From: an uncultured Gammaproteobacteria bacterium
GTDB lineage: Bacteria > Patescibacteriota > Microgenomatia > Levybacterales > GWA1-39-11
Assembly: GCA_964425075.1 (NCBI GenBank)
Contig: CAYRKM010000002.1
Span: 64,058 to 128,057 of the forward strand
DNA length: 64,000 nt
Reading direction: 5' to 3'
The notes beneath the pieces were generated by a model. It did no database searches, had not been told where the DNA came from, and was given only the letters and a program-made list of their open reading frames with translations. The position numbers and the translations under genes were made by a program. This document shows, piece by piece, positions 7,809 to 43,694 of this stretch (the stretch's first letter is position 1; each line of letters opens with the position of its first letter).

Positions 7809-10800
7809 TTGAGTATTATGGAGACTTTACATTCCGGTTTTGATCATCCTCCCGTTGGTCCTGCTCCACATCCTGATTCTTCAGGTAGACCCGTCACCCA
7901 CCCACTTCCTGGCGAGCTAGATGGGGAAGGAATGCTTGATCCAACATCTTTGGATTTCTGGCGAAATCTTCATGCTAACCTTACAGGCTTTATAAGCAAG
8001 AACTATCCCTTTTCAGATTTCCTTAAGAATTTCGATAGTGAGAAAGGGAAAGTGGGTCGCACACATTCAAATGGCGATACAAACGCCACATACGCATACC
8101 TTAATGCAATTTATAAACAGCGTTCATTCTCGCATCCCGGCCATCCTACTCTTGAGCAGCATATCGTCTCGCAATTCACACCTCCTACAGATGACCCCGA
8201 CTTTGCTGAAATTGTTGAAGAAACCCGCTCTCTTATTAGACAGCGTTTTCCAGAACATCAGCTTCCTAGAACGACAAGTCTTGTCAAGCTCCAAGATCCG
8301 GAATTTTGGAGCGAATTTGAGGATGAGCTTTCAAAAACTCCTTCGAGTTCAATATTTGCGGATTTTTTAAAAGGAGGAGGTGGCCTTTCTGAAGACGGTA
8401 GTCAGATGCAGGGAAAGTATCATGATGTCTGGCTTGATATATACGATCCTCGGGGTAGAACTGAATTTAGAAATGCATATAAGGAACAAACAGGAAGAGA
8501 TATAGATACTGATTCTGCAAGAGACGCTCAGAGGATTTTCTTCGAAGTAGCACCAGCACGTATAAAAGCACAGCTTATTAAGAGATATCCGAGAATTTTT
8601 AGTGGATTTGCAGTAGAGTGGGTAGGAAATTCTCAATTACCAAAAGCTGCCCAGGCTGTCATTAACACTCTCGGGTGGTTAGGTGAAGATAACCGAAAAA
8701 AAATACTTGACGTACTTTCGAAATATGTGCATATAGAAACAAGTAGTACTTCGGGTTTTGATTTTTCTGCTGAAGATACTAGCATTATTCTTGGACAAGC
8801 AGCAGAACAATCAGAAGTTGTAGCAGCAGAAGTTGGTCCGCCAACACTCGAAACTATTATTCGAGACGCAACTAATACTTTTCAGCTTGTTGAACAAGAA
8901 AAGTTGGATAATGGGAATTCTGAAAATGAACAACTGTCAAGTGAGCTAACAGCTGCCCTTGAAACATCCTATCTTTACCCAACACTTCGTAATGTTTTAT
9001 ATAAACCTTTCGCACTTTTTTGGTCAAAATATCTGGAGACTCATGGTGGGTCCTCTGTTCCCGAAGATGAAATGAGAAGTTTTCTTGACACATATGCACA
9101 TAATGAAATTGCTCAAACATCTCTATCGCCCGAAGAGCAGCAAATGCTTGAGCGTCTTAAAAAAAATGTTTTTTCCACTATTTTTAGTGAATTTATAGAA
9201 ATTGCAAATTACTCTTCTCAAATTAATCACTTCAGGGAAAGAAGCATCGACGGGAAAGCAAAGCATCTGTTTTTTCATCAGGTTGAGGGAATTAAGCATC
9301 TTGTCGAAAAAGGCGCCGGAATTTTAGCTGATGAACCAGGAACCGGCAAAACAGTGACCCTTGCGCTCGCAGCATTAAATCGAGTTGACCAAAAATTTCG
9401 AGAACCTGGAAAAATAGCAAGGGTGCTAGTTGTTGGATCAAAAACTGTTAATAACAACTGGGAGGAAGAACTTGAAATGCATGTTGCGCCAGGTGATGTC
9501 GATACAGTAAATTTCAATTCTGACGAACTTGCACAGTTAAGCCAGGCAAAACGCCTTGAAATAATGGCACAAAGATTGAAAAATCCTACAGCGGATAGAC
9601 AAGTTTTGCTTGTCAATTACGATCTGTTTCGCAATTCATTTTTTCAGGAACTCCTTCATTCTGCAGGAATTGACTGTACAATAATTGATGAAGCTCATAA
9701 TGTAAAATCGCGTTTTATGGATTCTATTGCTGAGCATAACGACGACACGTCCCATAATGCTCGACTTGCAAAACGCACAACAAATCTTTATAGATTTCTT
9801 CTTTCCAACCCGAATATGGATGTTTATTTGGGTACTAGCACTCCCTTCGTCAAAGAATTAATAGAGCCGCTTATCATGGGTCACCTGGTCGATAGGTGGA
9901 GTCTTCCAATTGACCGGGTTTCAGCTTTAAGGGAGGATCCTGCTGGAGCAAATTTGGCACTTCGTGAAGTAATGATTCGGCGACGAAAGGATGCAATCAG
10001 CGATATCCCCCCAAAAGACACAGACTTTATACCAGTAGACTTAAGCCTACTTAGTGCTGCGGAACGCTCGGAGCTTGTTTCATTGGGCCTTGATATAGAA
10101 AGAGCCGATGAAAGCTCTTTCAGAAGATTTTTTTCCATGTTGTCTATTGAAGCTCAAGCAAAAATGCCCTGGCTTATTGAGAAAATAAACGAGTTAACAT
10201 CTGATGGAAGAAAGGTAGTTGTTTTTACTCCATTCGTTAATGACCAGGAAAGACTTACAGCCTCAATAAGTACGAAGGCTATTGCAAAGCGACTTATTGA
10301 TTCAGGAATTACCTCTGTTGGAGTTCTTGATGGAACTTTAAGTGAAAGCGAAAAACTTGCTGTTCAAAGAGATTTTCATGACCCGAATGGGGTAAGAGTT
10401 TTGGTAGGTAATTATCAAACGGCAGGCGAATCAATTACACTTAATTCGCCTTTCAATAGAGCAACTGAAGTAATTATACTCGTTGCACCAAACACAATAA
10501 GTAGATACATTCAAGCAATTGATAGAGTGCATAGAATCGGACAAGATGAGAAGGTTACTATTCACGTGCCTTTTCTTACGGAAGACCCTATCGCAAGGCC
10601 AGACGGAACATATGACAGACGAATTGTTAGTCGAATGCTTAGAGAACTTTCACTCTTTAATGCTGTTGTAGATGGTTTATTTTTTGTTGAAGCTGCAGAT
10701 TATTACGATGAAATTAGACGGGGAAAAAACGGAAACTCAGAACCAAGAACCGCTCTTGAAAGTGGACAAACAGTTCGTTTGGATACAGAACAGAAGCCTC

Positions 10801-12245
10801 CTGCTGCTACTAAAAAAAGGGGCTTAACTCGGGATGTTTTTGACCAAAACACTGACGGAGCAATAGTACTACCAACAAGCAGAGAGGTAAATTTAAACAG
10901 TATTGGCATAAATCACACACGACATCACCAAATAGACAGAGAGGAAGCTTTGGCAATTACAGATTACTTCGACTCAGTGAGTCAATACCCTCTCCTTACA
11001 GTTGAGCAAGAACGTATAGCATTTAGATATCTAACTGAGGGAAAATCTGTCGCACAACTTCGTGATGATGGAGCATTTCTTGCGGCAAATCCTCGTAGCA
11101 CTGCAAAAATGCTTGCTGTACTTTCCGATAGTCGCTCCGTTAGAGATGTACTTGTTGCCTGTAATTTGAGACTCGTTGCCTCAATAGCAAATAGGTACAA
11201 AGGAAGACTTCCTTACACTGACCTGCTCCAGGAGGGAAATATTGGATTAATTAAGGGAATTGACGATTTTGACCCTGAGCGTGGATTAAAGCTTTCAACA
11301 TATGCAACCTGGTGGATTAAGCAATCAATAAGGCGTGCTATTGCTAATACGTCCCGAACTATTGACTTGCCTGTACACATGCATGAAATGGTCACAAAAA
11401 TGGTGCGTGTTTCAAATGAATTTTTTAGTAAACACCAGCGCTATCCATCTATAGAGGAGCTGGTTTCAGAAGGGTTTACTATATCCCAAGTTAACACAGC
11501 TATGCGCATAGCACGACTTGGAATTTCCAACCCCTCATCTCTTGATAGAACAATAGACGATGATGGTGAAACCACAATCGGGTCATTTGTTTCGGACGAA
11601 GGTGATCTTGAAGAAGAAACTATAGCCGCGATGGAAGAGGCTGAGCAAAGTCATATCGTTGGGCGTGCACTTTTATCTTTAAGCGAACGGGAACAGTTGG
11701 TGCTTACTCTTAGATTCGGGCTTGATGGTTCTGGCACTAGAACCCTTGAACAGGTTGGTAAAGAAATTGGTGTGACAAGAGAAAGAGCACGACAAATAGA
11801 AGTTAGTGCCCTAAAAAGACTTCGAGTAAATACCGGGCTTAGGGAGGCATACGATGGAGATTCCCCAAGTTTGCTTTGGTCAAGGGAAGTCTTGCCTACA
11901 AACGTATTGCCTCTTAGACCAGGGCCAATAGACATTGAGAGGGTCTCAGCAATCTCACAAGCTCAAGAAGTAGAAAGGTTGGAGGAGGAGAAAAACAGTC
12001 TTGAATTTGGCAGACAAGTTGTGGAACAAATAAAAATGGTACCTGATATATGGAATGCTTTAACTGATAGAGAGAAGACGCTTTTGACTCTTTATTTTAA
12101 AGGCACATTTGACCACAACACTACTAAAAGTAGACTTTCAAAAATCTTTGGCATAACCGAACAAGAGCTGTCTGTTTACATCGAGTATTCTGTTGCTTCT
12201 CTAGCCAAACACGTTGGTATGACATCCTCTGAGCTTCCTTCTTGA
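7809..12245 (+). CDS. giant fusion protein: N-terminal unknown region + Snf2/RapA-like ATPase + complete RpoD-type sigma-70 + extra sigma-4-like HTH
   Basis: Uninterrupted 1478 codons (TTG at 7809; first ATG at 7818). Snf2 motifs ADEPGTGKT, IIDEAHNV, QAIDRVHRIGQ. Sigma region 2 DLLQEGNIGLIKGIDDFDPERGLKLSTYATWWIKQSIRRAI and region 4.2 TLEQVGKEIGVTRERARQIEVSALKRLR are near-identical to RpoD consensus. Confidence 0.8.
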   Translation: MSIMETLHSGFDHPPVGPAPHPDSSGRPVTHPLPGELDGEGMLDPTSLDFWRNLHANLTGFISKNYPFSDFLKNFDSEKGKVGRTHSNGDTNATYAYLNAIYKQRSFSHPGHPTLEQHIVSQFTPPTDDPDFAEIVEETRSLIRQRFPEHQLPRTTSLVKLQDPEFWSEFEDELSKTPSSSIFADFLKGGGGLSEDGSQMQGKYHDVWLDIYDPRGRTEFRNAYKEQTGRDIDTDSARDAQRIFFEVAPARIKAQLIKRYPRIFSGFAVEWVGNSQLPKAAQAVINTLGWLGEDNRKKILDVLSKYVHIETSSTSGFDFSAEDTSIILGQAAEQSEVVAAEVGPPTLETIIRDATNTFQLVEQEKLDNGNSENEQLSSELTAALETSYLYPTLRNVLYKPFALFWSKYLETHGGSSVPEDEMRSFLDTYAHNEIAQTSLSPEEQQMLERLKKNVFSTIFSEFIEIANYSSQINHFRERSIDGKAKHLFFHQVEGIKHLVEKGAGILADEPGTGKTVTLALAALNRVDQKFREPGKIARVLVVGSKTVNNNWEEELEMHVAPGDVDTVNFNSDELAQLSQAKRLEIMAQRLKNPTADRQVLLVNYDLFRNSFFQELLHSAGIDCTIIDEAHNVKSRFMDSIAEHNDDTSHNARLAKRTTNLYRFLLSNPNMDVYLGTSTPFVKELIEPLIMGHLVDRWSLPIDRVSALREDPAGANLALREVMIRRRKDAISDIPPKDTDFIPVDLSLLSAAERSELVSLGLDIERADESSFRRFFSMLSIEAQAKMPWLIEKINELTSDGRKVVVFTPFVNDQERLTASISTKAIAKRLIDSGITSVGVLDGTLSESEKLAVQRDFHDPNGVRVLVGNYQTAGESITLNSPFNRATEVIILVAPNTISRYIQAIDRVHRIGQDEKVTIHVPFLTEDPIARPDGTYDRRIVSRMLRELSLFNAVVDGLFFVEAADYYDEIRRGKNGNSEPRTALESGQTVRLDTEQKPPAATKKRGLTRDVFDQNTDGAIVLPTSREVNLNSIGINHTRHHQIDREEALAITDYFDSVSQYPLLTVEQERIAFRYLTEGKSVAQLRDDGAFLAANPRSTAKMLAVLSDSRSVRDVLVACNLRLVASIANRYKGRLPYTDLLQEGNIGLIKGIDDFDPERGLKLSTYATWWIKQSIRRAIANTSRTIDLPVHMHEMVTKMVRVSNEFFSKHQRYPSIEELVSEGFTISQVNTAMRIARLGISNPSSLDRTIDDDGETTIGSFVSDEGDLEEETIAAMEEAEQSHIVGRALLSLSEREQLVLTLRFGLDGSGTRTLEQVGKEIGVTRERARQIEVSALKRLRVNTGLREAYDGDSPSLLWSREVLPTNVLPLRPGPIDIERVSAISQAQEVERLEEEKNSLEFGRQVVEQIKMVPDIWNALTDREKTLLTLYFKGTFDHNTTKSRLSKIFGITEQELSVYIEYSVASLAKHVGMTSSELPS

Positions 12246-13871: not shown

Positions 13872-13981
13872 GTATTACGTATTTTCTTGCCTCACTCATC
13901 CGTCCGAAGGTCGGATGAGCGGGATAAGAACACTTCGCCCTGCTCAGAACCTTGTCCCGTCAAAAAATCCTAGATTTTTTG

Positions 13982-14052
13982 AGCGGGATAGGAGAATCGA
14001 ACTCCTTACCTCAGATTGGAAATCTGATGTTTTACCGGTAAACTAATCCCGC
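13982..14052 (-). tRNA. tRNA-Gly (TCC)
   Basis: Reverse complement has acceptor gcgggat/atcccgc, anticodon stem tcaga/tctga, loop TTTCCAA, T-loop TTCGATT. Confidence 0.85.
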
Positions 14053-15571: not shown

Positions 15572-15787
15572 CTATTTCTTTCCACCCATTTGTTTTTCCC
15601 AGAGTAGCCAAAGACCAGATAACCCAACCAAAACGTACACTAACCATTCAACTGTTGGCCAAGCTCCAAGAAGCAAATTCACTACGTTGTAATTCGTTCC
15701 GCCCATAAATCCACCAAGTCCAACGAGCAACCAGTTAACCGCACCTACTATAACTAACCACCAAGCGAGAGTTTGTAATGTTTTCAT
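15572..15787 (-). CDS. DUF378-family small membrane protein
   Basis: 71 aa, two TM helices, WxxVGxxN-like pattern typical of DUF378. Confidence 0.55.
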   Translation of the reverse strand: MKTLQTLAWWLVIVGAVNWLLVGLGGFMGGTNYNVVNLLLGAWPTVEWLVYVLVGLSGLWLLWEKQMGGKK

Positions 15788-15893
15788 TTTTTATCACCTC
15801 CTTTCGTATAGCCTAATTTAATAGTAGAACTGTTTTGGAATATTAGTCAAGGGGGTAAAATATCAGTACAAGAAGCCTTAAGGTGTACATTCC

Positions 15894-16114
15894 GTCGGGG
15901 ATAAAGCAAGTTTGTCCCCTTCTTCATTTCATTCAGTCGGGGATAAGGAAACCTTGTCCCCACCAAATTCTTCGAGTTTGTCGGGGATAGAGGACTCGTT
16001 CTGTGAAACAGCCTGCAAGACAATCCGACCTGCCGAAGGCAATAATGTCGGGGATAGAGGACTCGTTCTGTGAAACAGTCTGCAAGACAATCCGACCTGC
16101 CGAAGGCAATAATG
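15894..16114 (-). repeat. tandem partial copies of the tRNA-Pro 3' end: two 67-nt units plus two degenerate hairpin units
   Basis: Every unit starts with gtcggggata..., the reverse complement of the tRNA-Pro 3' terminus. Units 15980-16046 and 16047-16113 differ at one base. Confidence 0.85.
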
Positions 16115-16187
16115 TCGGGGATAGAGGACTCGAACCTCCGACCTCACGGTCCCAAACCGCGCGCTCTACCAACTGAGCTAATCCCCG
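16115..16187 (-). tRNA. tRNA-Pro (TGG)
   Basis: Reverse complement has acceptor cggggat/atccccg, anticodon loop TTTGGGA, T-loop TTCGAGT. Confidence 0.85.
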
Positions 16188-16408
16188 AATTGTTTATATT
16201 GTAATTCCTCACCTCATCAAATACAAGATTTGAGTCTAAGTGGTGTAAAGTGTATCAAACCACATAATGACCATGTGGATAAGTTCAAATAGTACTTGAC
16301 AAACAGAGTTTGAACGTGCATATTAGTATGGTAAGTTCAAATGAGCTTAAATCATTCTAAAGAATATTTAGAAAGATTATTATAATTGAAAGGAGGTGAA
16401 GTAAAGAT

Positions 16409-16585
16409 ATGAAAATGCAATTTTATGATGTAAAGACTCGAAGCAAAGTTGACGCTGAAGTAACTGAAAAGACTACTTACCAAGTAAAGGGACAAACTAA
16501 ATACGCTGTAAAGGGAAAGACTTCAGACGGACGAAATTTGACTAGATTCGTAAGCAAAGATGCATACGACTCAGCAAACGTTTAG
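16409..16585 (+). CDS. small basic protein (58 aa), hypothetical; not in the ORF track because <60 aa
   Basis: ATG preceded by strong SD aaaggaggtgaa at consensus spacing; Lys-rich product MKMQFYDVKTRSKVDAEV...; inverted repeat follows the stop. Confidence 0.4.
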   Translation: MKMQFYDVKTRSKVDAEVTEKTTYQVKGQTKYAVKGKTSDGRNLTRFVSKDAYDSANV

Positions 16586-19550: not shown

Positions 19551-19627
19551 ACTAAAGTGCCTGCGCTGAATGAAGCTGAAGTGCTTGCACTGAGTGAAGC
19601 TGAAGTGCTTGCACTGAGTGAAGCGAA
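19551..19627 (+). repeat. tRNA-flanking tandem repeat (24-nt units, core AGTGC-YT-GCRCT), 3' side of tRNA-Ala
   Basis: ctaaagtgcctgcgctgaatgaag / ctgaagtgcttgcactgagtgaag x2. Confidence 0.8.
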
Positions 19628-21678: not shown

Positions 21679-21754
21679 GTTTGCCTGCACTGAACAAAGC
21701 TGAATGTGCTTGCACTGAACAAAGCTGAATGTGCTTGCACTGAGTGAAACGAAG
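21679..21754 (+). repeat. tRNA-flanking tandem repeat (25-nt units), 3' side of tRNA-Leu(TAA)
   Basis: gaatgtgcttgcactgaacaaagct x2 plus variants. Confidence 0.8.
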
Positions 21755-34937: not shown

Positions 34938-35088
34938 ACACAGAAAGGTTTGGATAGGACTCGGATTTTGTCAAAGAGTCCTCTCAGGCCCACTTCGTCC
35001 GCCTACCGGCGGACTCAGTGCGGGCACTTTTATAAATATAGAATAGGTTTTCCTTTTTGGGCTTGTCCTGAGAAGGCAAAGCCGACGA

Positions 35089-35264: not shown

Positions 35265-35519
35265 ATGCAATATTTTGTGTACATTCTTGAATGCAGTGAT
35301 GGTTCGCTTTATACAGGCTATACAACTGATATAGAGCGAAGGGTGAAAGAGCACAACAAAGGAAAGAGCGGAGCTAAGTCTGTACGAGGGAAATTACCTG
35401 CCGAATTAGTTTACTCCGAAACCTTTGTAACTCTTTCAGAGGCATTGAAACGAGAAGCTGAAATCAAAAGTTGGAAGAGATACGAAAAACAAATGTTAAT
35501 AGCGACGAAGCGGGCGTAA
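35265..35519 (+). CDS. GIY-YIG nuclease-superfamily small protein (UPF0213/YhbQ-like)
   Basis: YFVYILECSDGSLYTGYTTDIERRVKEHN is a GIY-YIG core. Wedged between tRNA-Phe and tRNA-Gly. Confidence 0.75.
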   Translation: MQYFVYILECSDGSLYTGYTTDIERRVKEHNKGKSGAKSVRGKLPAELVYSETFVTLSEALKREAEIKSWKRYEKQMLIATKRA

Positions 35520-37349: not shown

Positions 37350-37491
37350 TGATGTGCCTGCACTGTGCAAGAAGTGTTACGTTGTGAAACAAAGTCTCGA
37401 AGTGCTTTCATCGATCAAGAAGTGCTTGCGCTGAACGAAATGGAAGCCTGCACTGAATGAAGTTGAGGTGCTTGCACTGAACGTAGTGAAG
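37350..37491 (+). repeat. tRNA-flanking repeat array (>=5 irregularly spaced units), 3' side of tRNA-Leu(CAG)
   Basis: Five irregularly spaced GTGCYTGCRCTGA-type cores, e.g. gatgtgcctgcactgtg, gaagtgcttgcgctgaa, gaggtgcttgcactgaa. Confidence 0.75.
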
Positions 37492-39253: not shown

Positions 39254-39352
39254 CTTCACTACGTTCAGTGCAAGCACCTCAACTTCATTCAGTGCAGGCT
39301 TCCATTTCGTTCAGTGCAAGTACTTCGGGGCCTTGTTTCTCAGCGCTTGCAC
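39254..39352 (+). repeat. tRNA-flanking repeat array, 3' side of tRNA-Leu(TAG); same family in reverse orientation
   Basis: ttcagtgcaagcacctc / ttcagtgcaggcttcc / ttcagtgcaagtacttc. Confidence 0.75.
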
Positions 39353-43241: not shown

Positions 43242-43451
43242 TATTAAGAGTTTCTTGATTTGAGGCAAAAAATACATTACACTACGGAAAAGTGAACAAT
43301 TGGTTCAGTTGGTTGCGATGAATTCATTCATCGAGCGATGTTAGAAGTGTGGAGTTGTAACTCAGTTGGGGTTCGACTTTTGAAAAATGGACTCATAAGC
43401 AGAGTTTGCTTTTTGTTTTCGAAAAGTAGCTCAGTTGGTTACATTTTGTGT

Positions 43452-43525
43452 GGACGATTAGCTCAGTTGGTTAGAGCGTTGCATTGACATTGCAAAGGTC
43501 ACAAGTTCGAATCTTGTATCGTCCA
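43452..43525 (+). tRNA. tRNA-Val (GAC)
   Basis: Acceptor ggacgat/atcgtcc, anticodon stem ttgca/tgcaa, loop TTGACAT, T-loop TTCGAAT. Confidence 0.85.
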
Positions 43526-43620
43526 CACAAAATGCGCTGAAGCGTTGCATTGACATTGCAGAGGCCAGAGAAGGAATTTCATTAATGAAATTCGACTGTC
43601 GTCAGCGAATCCTCTTGGGT

Positions 43621-43694
43621 CCACTTCACTTCGTTCAGTGCAGGCACTTCAGTTTCGTTCAGCACGGGTACTTCGTTACACTCAGCACAGACAC
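43621..43694 (+). repeat. tRNA-flanking repeat array, 3' side of tRNA-Val(GAC)
   Basis: ttcagtgcaggcacttc / ttcagcacgggtacttc / ctcagcacagacac. Confidence 0.65.

Follow-up and report, generated by a model that had tools for sequence, protein, structure and literature searches.

The repeat array behind tRNA-Pro

The DNA analysed here, a stretch of 64,000 nucleotides (nt) on contig CAYRKM010000002.1 that is referred to throughout as the window, comes from a genome of Candidatus Levyibacteriota, a lineage of the candidate phyla radiation (CPR). On its minus strand lies a tRNA-Pro(TGG) gene, in which CCA is not encoded, followed directly by four tandem units (U1, U2, H3 and H4, in order of distance from the gene) that each end in a copy of the gene's own 3' end (Table 1). 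A first-pass annotation had described the tRNA gene and, behind it, two 67-nt repeats that differ at one base, each joining the 19-nt tRNA 3' end to a 48-nt tail with a 'ccgacct' block; the gene and the repeats were recovered by ARAGORN, Rfam and Tandem Repeats Finder, and the block was identified as AGGTCGGA, an exact 8-nt match to the tRNA gene. The two further degenerate, hairpin-forming units of that description are likewise present, both ending in the 10-nt TATCCCCGAC, and the two open reading frames (ORFs) that it attributed to the repeats (15929-16147 and 15933-16172) exist and overlap both the tRNA and the repeats. It can be added that the copies run one base past the discriminator, to C74.

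Tandem Repeats Finder reported 2.3 copies of a 67-nt period at 15979-16132, with a match of 98% and a score of 301. The sole difference between U1 and U2 is an A/G change (GCAGACTG versus GCAGGCTG), and a difference at one base in 67 indicates a recent tandem duplication. The decamer GTCGGGGATA was found exactly five times within 15894-16123 and nowhere else in the window, a count that was reached by none of 100 shuffles.

The copy number of the 67-nt unit rests on one assembly, and two short-read contigs of the same strain (L002 and L003) break inside tRNA-Pro. Such breaks in independent contigs, the break of another contig within a repeat array, and a disagreement upstream of tRNA-Phe between the window and a 99.87%-identical contig (L080) would all be in keeping with a partial artefact of assembly, in which the number of 67-nt units was inflated or collapsed in the metagenome bin. 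That explanation is nevertheless highly improbable: related arrays are present in independent assemblies of other species, and neither the single-base difference between U1 and U2 nor the distinctness of H3 and H4 would have been created by such an artefact. Exact-protein look-ups of the neighbouring MFS, DUF378 and NQR-like proteins returned no match.

A putative tRNA-Pro promoter ends 10 nt before the 5' end of the tRNA, and its hexamers are kept in one of the two closest syntenic relatives (L038); it was not called by a consensus scan, and its -35 hexamer matches the consensus at only three of six bases. The co-directional downstream neighbour of the array, outside the array itself, is a gene for a DUF378 membrane protein, whose promoter-like site lies in a block that is kept in both of these relatives (L038 and L039) and marks the distal limit of the tRNA-Pro trailer. 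Because the array lies between tRNA-Pro and this next promoter-like site, it takes up the whole trailer of the transcription unit to which the tRNA belongs.

Table 1. Coordinates (window numbering) of the tRNA-Pro locus and of other features named in the text.
Feature	Position	Strand	Basis or remarks
tRNA-Pro(TGG), 73 nt plus encoded C74	16187..16115, C74 at 16114	minus	ARAGORN; Rfam RF00005, 67.2 bits
Putative tRNA-Pro promoter, TTGTAT-17 nt-TACAAT	16198..16226	minus	Read from sequence
Unit U1, 67 nt	16047..16113	minus	48-nt tail 16066-16113; 19-nt tRNA 3'-end copy 16047-16065
Unit U2, 67 nt	15980..16046	minus	As U1 except for one base; 19-nt copy 15980-15998
Unit H3	15936..15979	minus	18-nt spacer and minihelix relic GGGGAcAAGGtttCCTTaTCCCCGAC (15936-15961)
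Unit H4	15894..15935	minus	16-nt spacer and minihelix relic GGGGAcAAActtgcTTTaTCCCCGAC (15894-15919)
Promoter-like site of DUF378 gene, TTGACT-18 nt-TACTAT	15821..15850	minus	Block kept in L038 and L039
DUF378 membrane-protein gene	15572..15787	minus	Pfam PF04070, E 2.2e-12
58-amino-acid ORF	16409-16585	plus	Upstream region 16228-16400
tRNA-Gly(tcc)	13981-14052	minus	Trailer 13917-13980; minihelix ~13917-13959
Copy of tRNA-Leu(gag) 3' end, 18 nt	34976-34993
tRNA-Val(gac)	43452-43526		Region of split older copy 43427-43640
Tandem 23-24-nt units	19557-19627, 21681-21753, 37354-37490, 39255-39323, 43620-43680		Single unit at 35014-35027
GIY-YIG ORF	35265-35519	plus	Pfam E 4.9e-18
1478-amino-acid ORF	7809-12245	plus

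Anatomy of the repeat units

Each 67-nt unit consists of the 48-nt tail and CGAGTCCTCTATCCCCGAC, the last 19 nt of the tRNA-Pro gene, which spans the T loop from C56, the 3' strand of the T stem, the 3' strand of the acceptor stem, the discriminator A73, and C74. The match AGGTCGGA in the tail corresponds to the variable-loop and T-stem part of tRNA-Pro; in U1 and U2 it is parted from the last 19 nt by a 25-nt filler that replaces G52-T55 and occupies the place of the 5' side of the T stem and of the T loop, and the tail also holds a tgccTTCggca hairpin. The identity block of the array thus begins within the T loop, between T55 and C56, and all four units stop where the tRNA-Pro gene stops, at A73-C74. 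The exact copies of the tRNA-Pro 3' end in the array comprise two of 19 nt and two of 10 nt.

The two distal units have a different construction. H3 folds as GGGGA-c-AAGG-ttt-CCTT-a-TCCCC (a stem of 5+4 pairs with a C-A mismatch) followed by G-A-C, with an energy of -13.3 kcal/mol (z -1.4), and H4 as GGGGA-c-AAA-cttgc-TTT-a-TCCCC (5+3 pairs), with -8.1 kcal/mol (z -1.8); these folding energies are unremarkable when taken alone. Both are relics of a minihelix, in which the two strands of the acceptor stem enclose a shortened T arm and are followed by A73 and C74, and H4 is a diverged duplicate of H3. The probable descent of the shortened arm of H3 from a T arm is read from an alignment of AAGGTTTCCTTATCCCC with GAGGTT(cgag)TCCTCTATCCCC.

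No fold signal was found in the 67-nt unit (z 0.17) or in the homologous units of two other genomes, L029 and L018 (z for the U, A and B units 0.17, -1.1, 0.04, 0.35 and 0.48), and a structured RNA in the unit or its homologues was rejected on that ground. On the plus strand, antisense to the tRNA, H4 presents a terminator-like hairpin with a T-rich tail, which was the sole terminator-like call; the tRNA strand of the array contains no U-tract, as the definition of an intrinsic terminator would demand. A search of 15700-16300 against Rfam 15 returned the tRNA as the only match, with all other hits at E > 3.

A variable spot among relatives

Relatives were found by an exact-pattern scan with the 3' half of tRNA-Pro, which matched 31 species-representative contigs. 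Array-like features were present behind tRNA-Pro in six of approximately 34 species, and nothing resembling the array was found in most. In L039, where DUF378 is 85% identical, the 3' end of tRNA-Pro is identical and the order of tRNA-Pro, DUF378 and MFS genes is the same, the position of the array is occupied by approximately 170 nt of unrelated sequence; a decayed array at this position, hinted at by a MAFFT alignment, was rejected when local alignment scored the same as shuffles. In L038 (DUF378 88% identical), the position holds an inserted ORF of 156 amino acids that resembles sigma-70 region 4. Other versions were encountered elsewhere: L029 and L018 carry arrays larger than that of the window, L015 (which is duplicated by L037) has one 10-nt copy behind tRNA-Pro, L013 a relic of tRNA-Pro that is missing the D arm alone, and L035 a degenerate 17-mer. 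The expectation that this is a variable spot was thus borne out by the lack of an array in L038 and L039 and by the different versions in L029, L018, L015 and L013, and the absence from the two closest relatives further indicates that the array is not a conserved trailer.

The most informative of these loci is that of L029, in which two pseudo-tRNA-Pro copies each contain GTAGCTCAGTTGG, TAGAGCGCGC, AGGTCGGA and CAAGTCCTCTTTCCCCGAC (the last 19 nt) in the order of the tRNA, with unrelated inserts at the positions of the D loop, the anticodon and the T loop; one of the two is split by approximately 400 bp that include an ORF of 98 amino acids without a Pfam family. The 3' third of the pseudo-copy is homologous to the 67-nt unit of the window: the alignment of the window tail with L029 unit B1 scored 47 at approximately 81% identity, as against a mean of 13.8 and a maximum of 26 among shuffles (0 of 1000 reached the score). 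The two genomes are distant, with amino-acid identities of 64% for ZIP, 49% for the NQR-like protein and 37% for the cupredoxin. In each case the copies match the tRNA variant of their own host (CGAG..TAT in the window, CAAG..TTT in L029 and L015). Metagenome scans for the 67-nt type of unit gave no hits, and the only contig in which they detected a second 3' copy at a distance of 26-56 nt was L037, the duplicate of L015.

A patchy distribution of this kind, in which a similar unit is shared with a distant genome and absent from closer ones, could also have been produced by a small non-autonomous cassette, integron-like or resembling a miniature inverted-repeat transposable element, that spreads horizontally and is specific to the 3' end of tRNA-Pro. 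Each unit would then have at its end a recombination site resembling the 3' end of the tRNA, with the enzyme encoded elsewhere; the L029 unit split by the 98-amino-acid ORF does resemble an ORF with its site, and the L029 unit contains a conserved inverted repeat, TCCGAC-AG-GTCGGA. This explanation was judged improbable, since no candidate enzyme was found, the ORF is without a Pfam family, and the unit is known from two species only and, in all loci searched, only behind tRNA-Pro. In addition, the promoter and operator of a neighbouring 58-amino-acid gene are equally conserved between equally distant genomes; where functional non-coding DNA is conserved to that degree, high similarity alone does not show transfer.

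The 58-amino-acid ORF itself, which lies beside tRNA-Pro on the plus strand and is without a Pfam family, encodes a protein that is 100% identical to that of the distant L001 across 27 synonymous differences. Its promoter contains a conserved TTTGAAC...GTTCAAA inverted repeat, and FUR and ZIP genes lie downstream in relatives, a setting that suggests a metal-regulated small protein. The identity of the protein despite the synonymous differences reflects selection rather than transfer, and on the strength of those same differences the idea that the entire surroundings of tRNA-Pro had recently been acquired horizontally was rejected.

The same pattern at other tRNA genes

Among 106 tRNA genes of the window and the related loci, eight are accompanied, no more than 350 nt away, by an exact copy of the last 10-21 nt of the gene, and every one of these copies ends at N73-C74. 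The longer copies (17-21 nt) start at T54-A58 in all six cases, which involve five tRNA genes: Pro (window and L029), Leu(gag) (window), Gly and Arg (L013), and Gly (L021). C74 is encoded after 106 of 106 tRNA genes (window and L001-L036), the full CCA after 16, and position 75 is mostly A; the universality of C74 suggests a lineage-specific requirement in 3' processing or in processing by RNase P.

Trailer modules follow eight of the 14 tRNA genes of the window, and none occurs at tRNAs that are closely followed by another tRNA. Behind tRNA-Gly(tcc), the trailer consists of an A/T hairpin and then a minihelix (GGGACAAGG...CTTATCCCGCTC) that has 11+8 nt in common with the tRNA-Pro hairpin H3; comparable hairpins follow tRNA-Gly(tcc) in L015 (1940-2080) and L029 (~250-315), and the first hairpin of the trailer displays two compensatory pair changes. 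One of the L015 hairpins (GAGAGGGA...TCCCTCTC) regained its pairing after a change in the copy. Behind tRNA-Leu(gag), an 18-nt copy of the gene's own end lies 36 nt downstream. The tRNA-Val(gac) gene sits inside a split older copy of itself, of which a 5' piece (GTAGCTCAGTTGGTTA) remains 10 nt upstream and a 3' relic downstream, the latter with an anticodon arm identical at 22 of 23 positions, a hairpin insert at the position of the T arm, and a diverged 3' end. The 10 nt before this tRNA pair perfectly with the 10 nt from A73, an arrangement that is unique among 118 tRNAs; leader-trailer pairing as a general trait of the tRNAs studied here was accordingly rejected.

A further type of module was found behind five window tRNAs that end in CAC, where tandem units of 23-24 nt (consensus ~TTCAnnTTCAnTCAGTGCARGCAC) each end in GCAC, as the tRNA does. 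The units occur with tRNA-Ala, Leu(taa), Leu(cag), Leu(tag), the tRNA-Val(gac) relic and the tRNA-Leu(gag) copy; 15 of 22 matches lie in tRNA trailers in the orientation of the tRNA, and related motifs follow tRNAs in L011, L013 and L026. A general terminator or a repetitive extragenic palindromic (REP)-like element was rejected, as neither hairpin type was encountered in the window anywhere but behind a tRNA. Traces of allele replacement were seen as well: in L035 (7100-7284), a new tRNA-Ala allele has behind it a piece of the old allele, 53 nt from its 3' side, and L041 (4600-4800) and L040 (6840-6960), which are strains of one species, carry different tRNA-Arg alleles, with L041 retaining, in front of its own allele, a 7-nt 5' relic of the other. 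Taken together, the tRNA-fragment debris looks like a lineage-wide habit rather than the footprints of a virus-like element.

Hairpins were also observed on the other side of some tRNA genes. Conserved leader hairpins precede tRNA-Leu(taa) in L006, L010, L020, L022 and L027, and tRNA-Ala(ggc) in L014, L021, L034 and L035. Before tRNA-Pro in L029 (3270-3300) and L001 (710-760), a CTCCCCG...CGGGGAG hairpin is formed between the 5' acceptor strand of the tRNA and a copy of its 3' acceptor strand that lies upstream.

A possible selected trailer

The first-pass annotation had offered a deliberate processing or terminator module as one reading of the array, and part of that suggestion was retained, in the form of a cis-acting trailer whose units would be transcribed together with tRNA-Pro and act at the level of RNA. 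The minihelices with A73-C74 would serve as a tRNA-like site for RNase P, RNase Z or the CCA-adding enzyme, at which the last tRNA of a transcription unit is cut free, or else as a barrier to 3' exonucleases or a terminator without a U-tract. Such punctuation by tRNA-like structures is known from plant mitochondrial t-elements and from hairpins that serve as substrates of RNase P, the 4.5S RNA precursor being one, and by their sequence H3 and H4 resemble t-elements in forming hairpins like an acceptor and T stem that are followed by the discriminator base and C74; unlike t-elements, which lie at the ends of mRNAs, they are found behind a tRNA and are not conserved in the nearest relatives.

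The placement of all copies in tRNA orientation, between the tRNA and the next promoter and ending at N73-C74, speaks for selection of this kind, as do the encoded C74 of every tRNA gene, the restriction of modules to tRNAs with no other tRNA closely behind, the compensatory changes behind tRNA-Gly(tcc), and the conservation of the tail at 81% with the distant L029. The near-identical minihelix behind tRNA-Gly(tcc) (GGGACAAGG...CTTATCCC), with its related hairpins in L015 and L029, and the identity of the H3 and H4 stems beside diverged loops and spacers, point in the same direction. Minihelices are nonetheless absent behind tRNA-Pro in L038 and L039, and the array as a whole is lacking behind the same tRNA in those two closest relatives and in most of the approximately 34 species; the U, A and B units have no fold signal, the hairpins of the homologous units in the window and L029 do not align, no U-tract lies on the tRNA strand, and no Rfam family besides tRNA was matched. 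A selected trailer was on balance considered unlikely.

Possible scars of integration

The first-pass annotation had placed most weight on repeated site-specific integration and excision at a tRNA attachment site (attB), and had remarked that the window contains no integrase. The remark was correct: a Pfam search of 50 window ORFs identified housekeeping genes and no integrase, recombinase or transposase. The reading itself was not supported, since neither an integrase nor a viral match nor an element carrying attP was found, and the spacers are partly tRNA-derived. In its fullest form, it supposes that successive elements, each with an attP that includes the block from the T loop to the 3' end, integrated at tRNA-Pro and decayed to tens of bases, or that the occupant now lies elsewhere. 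Precise excision leaves no scar.

Several features are in keeping with such a history. Attachment sites of a T-loop class in tRNA genes were reportedly defined by Williams in 2002, and the direct repeats of the array, which run from the T loop to the gene end, resemble sites of this class. Furthermore, the DNA behind tRNA-Pro differs from relative to relative and includes small ORFs in L029 and L038, and in L029 the repeat continues for 12 nt beyond the tRNA (CCGAC AGAATTCAG), which would be possible for an att identity block. Partial tRNA genes are also a common product of integrating elements (PMC9897764). The array shares with the attL and attR remnants so described a partial tRNA 3' copy downstream of an intact gene and a variable locus, and differs from them in having no recombinase, cargo or attP element and in intervening DNA that amounts to tens of bases.

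This intervening DNA counts against integration. The sequence between successive tRNA 3'-end copies is 32-48 nt long and is itself partly derived from the tRNA (AGGTCGGA in the window, D-arm and anticodon-stem blocks in L029), which a simple att scar does not predict; the L029 blocks moreover lie upstream of any crossover in the T loop. Four independent decays, each of which spared both att copies, are unlikely. No integrase was found in the 64 kb, and tblastn with XerD and resolvase queries detected none in approximately 350 kb of related loci, a search of low sensitivity with approximate queries. The 19-mer was not found in IMG/VR contigs, no viral contig or phage record matched the tail or the array, and a phage or viral origin of the 48-nt tail was rejected, as all 34 IMG/VR seed hits were due to chance. 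Direct repeats are thus the only feature of the att-scar model that was observed, with recombinase and foreign DNA or attP both missing, and an origin of the array as integration scars appears improbable.

GIY-YIG nuclease genes in tRNA clusters

A stand-alone GIY-YIG ORF lies in the window between tRNA-Phe and tRNA-Gly(gcc), and similar ORFs are flanked by tRNA genes at nine of nine loci (window, L001, L011, L021, L026, L040 and L081-L083), three of which were picked by protein homology alone. In four species (L001, L011, L021 and L026) the ORF is located directly upstream of tRNA-Pro. The proteins are 82-88 amino acids in length (84 in the window), and their genes frequently adjoin the 5' end of the tRNA that follows or run into it. 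A 17-nt direct repeat of the sequence at the 5' end of tRNA-Pro flanks the L001 cassette on both sides, and between L040 and L041 the presence or absence of the ORF coincides with the change of tRNA-Arg allele.

The arrangement recalls SegB of phage T4, a GIY-YIG homing endonuclease that is encoded in a tRNA cluster and recognises the T-psi-C stem-loop of tRNA genes (PMC2330249). SegB has been demonstrated to be required when a segment that contains tRNA genes is amplified in tandem by recombination at microhomology, and its cleavage motif is RAWTSGAAC (PMC13096335), which by our reading is the reverse complement of the T-loop consensus. As with SegB in T4 and T6, the nuclease gene lies inside tRNA clusters in CPR genomes (at all nine loci, none of them that of the array itself), and the repeat junctions fall in the T loop (T54-A58), within the structure that SegB recognises. 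The outcome of SegB action comprises tandem segmental amplification and the one-way replacement of tRNA regions.

A proposed origin by local duplication and break repair

The explanation that we tentatively prefer, and which may well account for the array even if we stop short of calling it probable, is that the units are degenerate partial copies of tRNA-Pro that arose locally, at the level of DNA, when breaks towards the 3' side of the gene were repaired and its copies recombined unequally. The descent of all four units from tRNA-Pro is itself shown by their sequence, as are their common end at C74 and the junction in the T loop. Under this explanation, tRNA genes would have been broken in the first instance, probably by the small GIY-YIG endonucleases of the lineage's tRNA clusters by analogy with SegB, and repair of the breaks would have left partial duplications. 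One such older partial duplicate of tRNA-Pro would have a surviving homologue in L029, where it makes up the third on the 3' side of a complete pseudo-tRNA-Pro whose loops, all three of them, carry insertions. The duplicate would later have been doubled when the 19-nt repeats slipped or underwent unequal exchange, and continued unequal exchange would expand and contract the array and keep the copies identical to the live gene. Transcription from the tRNA promoter would include the array as a 3' trailer, which processing would then remove; the hairpins of the array may, as a side effect, stabilise the transcript or bring it to an end, and no dedicated function would be required. A SegB-like nuclease may have been the trigger.

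A classical precedent is the trailer of the Escherichia coli tyrT gene, in which, as Rossi and colleagues are said to have described in 1981, a 178-bp unit is repeated about 3.14 times behind tRNA-Tyr. Each of its units contains approximately the last 19 nt of tRNA-Tyr, and unequal recombination is the usual explanation. The window array is similar in its head-to-tail units directly 3' of a tRNA, in the same orientation and each with the terminal ~19 nt; it differs in that its 67-nt unit is shorter, non-coding, and carries a second tRNA block (AGGTCGGA), that minihelix relics follow, and that the pattern recurs at many tRNAs of one lineage. The tyrT trailer is the closest classical parallel to the array, and SegB-driven amplification the closest mechanistic one.

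A number of observations weigh against local duplication or against its proposed trigger. No GIY-YIG gene is found at the array, the nearest being 19 kb away. The CPR proteins, at ~85 amino acids, consist of the catalytic domain alone, and the match to a homing-endonuclease family is weak in L001 and absent in the others. SegB, moreover, acts in phage, whereas the host here is a cellular CPR genome, and its amplicons contain whole tRNA genes together with the nuclease gene, whereas the units of the array are 3' fragments and minihelix relics. The stems of H3 and H4 are identical, including the bases GGGGACAA that do not come from the tRNA and that recur in the tRNA-Gly minihelix, and such identity beside diverged loops and spacers hints at a constraint on the hairpin. 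Finally, the tail is approximately 81% identical to that of L029, in which proteins are 37-64% identical, yet the unit is absent from the closer L038 and L039; patchy spread combined with so high a similarity is unlike a neutral relic that was inherited vertically, and implies selection or horizontal spread.

Further observations in the window

The Logan contig L080 matches the window at 99.87% identity across 2.3 kb and diverges from it completely just upstream of tRNA-Phe (window 35183, L080 721), where an ORF of 215 amino acids with its own promoter replaces tRNA-Leu(gag) and tRNA-Val(tac); either the strains differ by a rearrangement at a tRNA boundary or one of the assemblies contains a chimeric join. 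Elsewhere in the window, an ORF of 1478 amino acids unites SNF2-family helicase domains and sigma-70 regions 2 and 4 in a single protein, an unusual fusion.

Implications

Searches of the literature on tRNA trailers or tRNA fragments in CPR genomes found nothing specific, and while repeats of tRNA 3' ends are already known, a lineage-wide, integrase-free CPR version with a link to GIY-YIG genes was not described in the literature searched. Partial tRNA copies usually count as the marks of integrated mobile elements and help to define where genomic islands begin and end; in the present case, such a signature appears to have arisen with no integrase involved, in a minimal-genome lineage with little spare DNA. 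As a practical matter, such repeats break short-read assemblies at tRNA genes, and yield spurious ORFs and pseudo-tRNA calls in CPR bins.

A broader proposition, which is doubtful, is that small GIY-YIG endonucleases that cut T loops may shape the tRNA clusters of Levyibacteriota, and perhaps of CPR bacteria at large, with the resulting fragments recruited as the standard 3' trailers of terminal tRNAs. If this were true, SegB-like cutting in a cellular genome would cause segments to be duplicated, alleles to be replaced in one direction and tRNA cassettes to be exchanged horizontally, and the minihelices, the 3'-end mimics and the 23-nt 'CAC' units would be recruited trailers. Should the link to GIY-YIG nucleases hold, the amplification and replacement of tRNA genes driven by homing endonucleases would extend beyond phages, where it has been demonstrated so far, and nuclease action would shape an essential gene set in cellular genomes.

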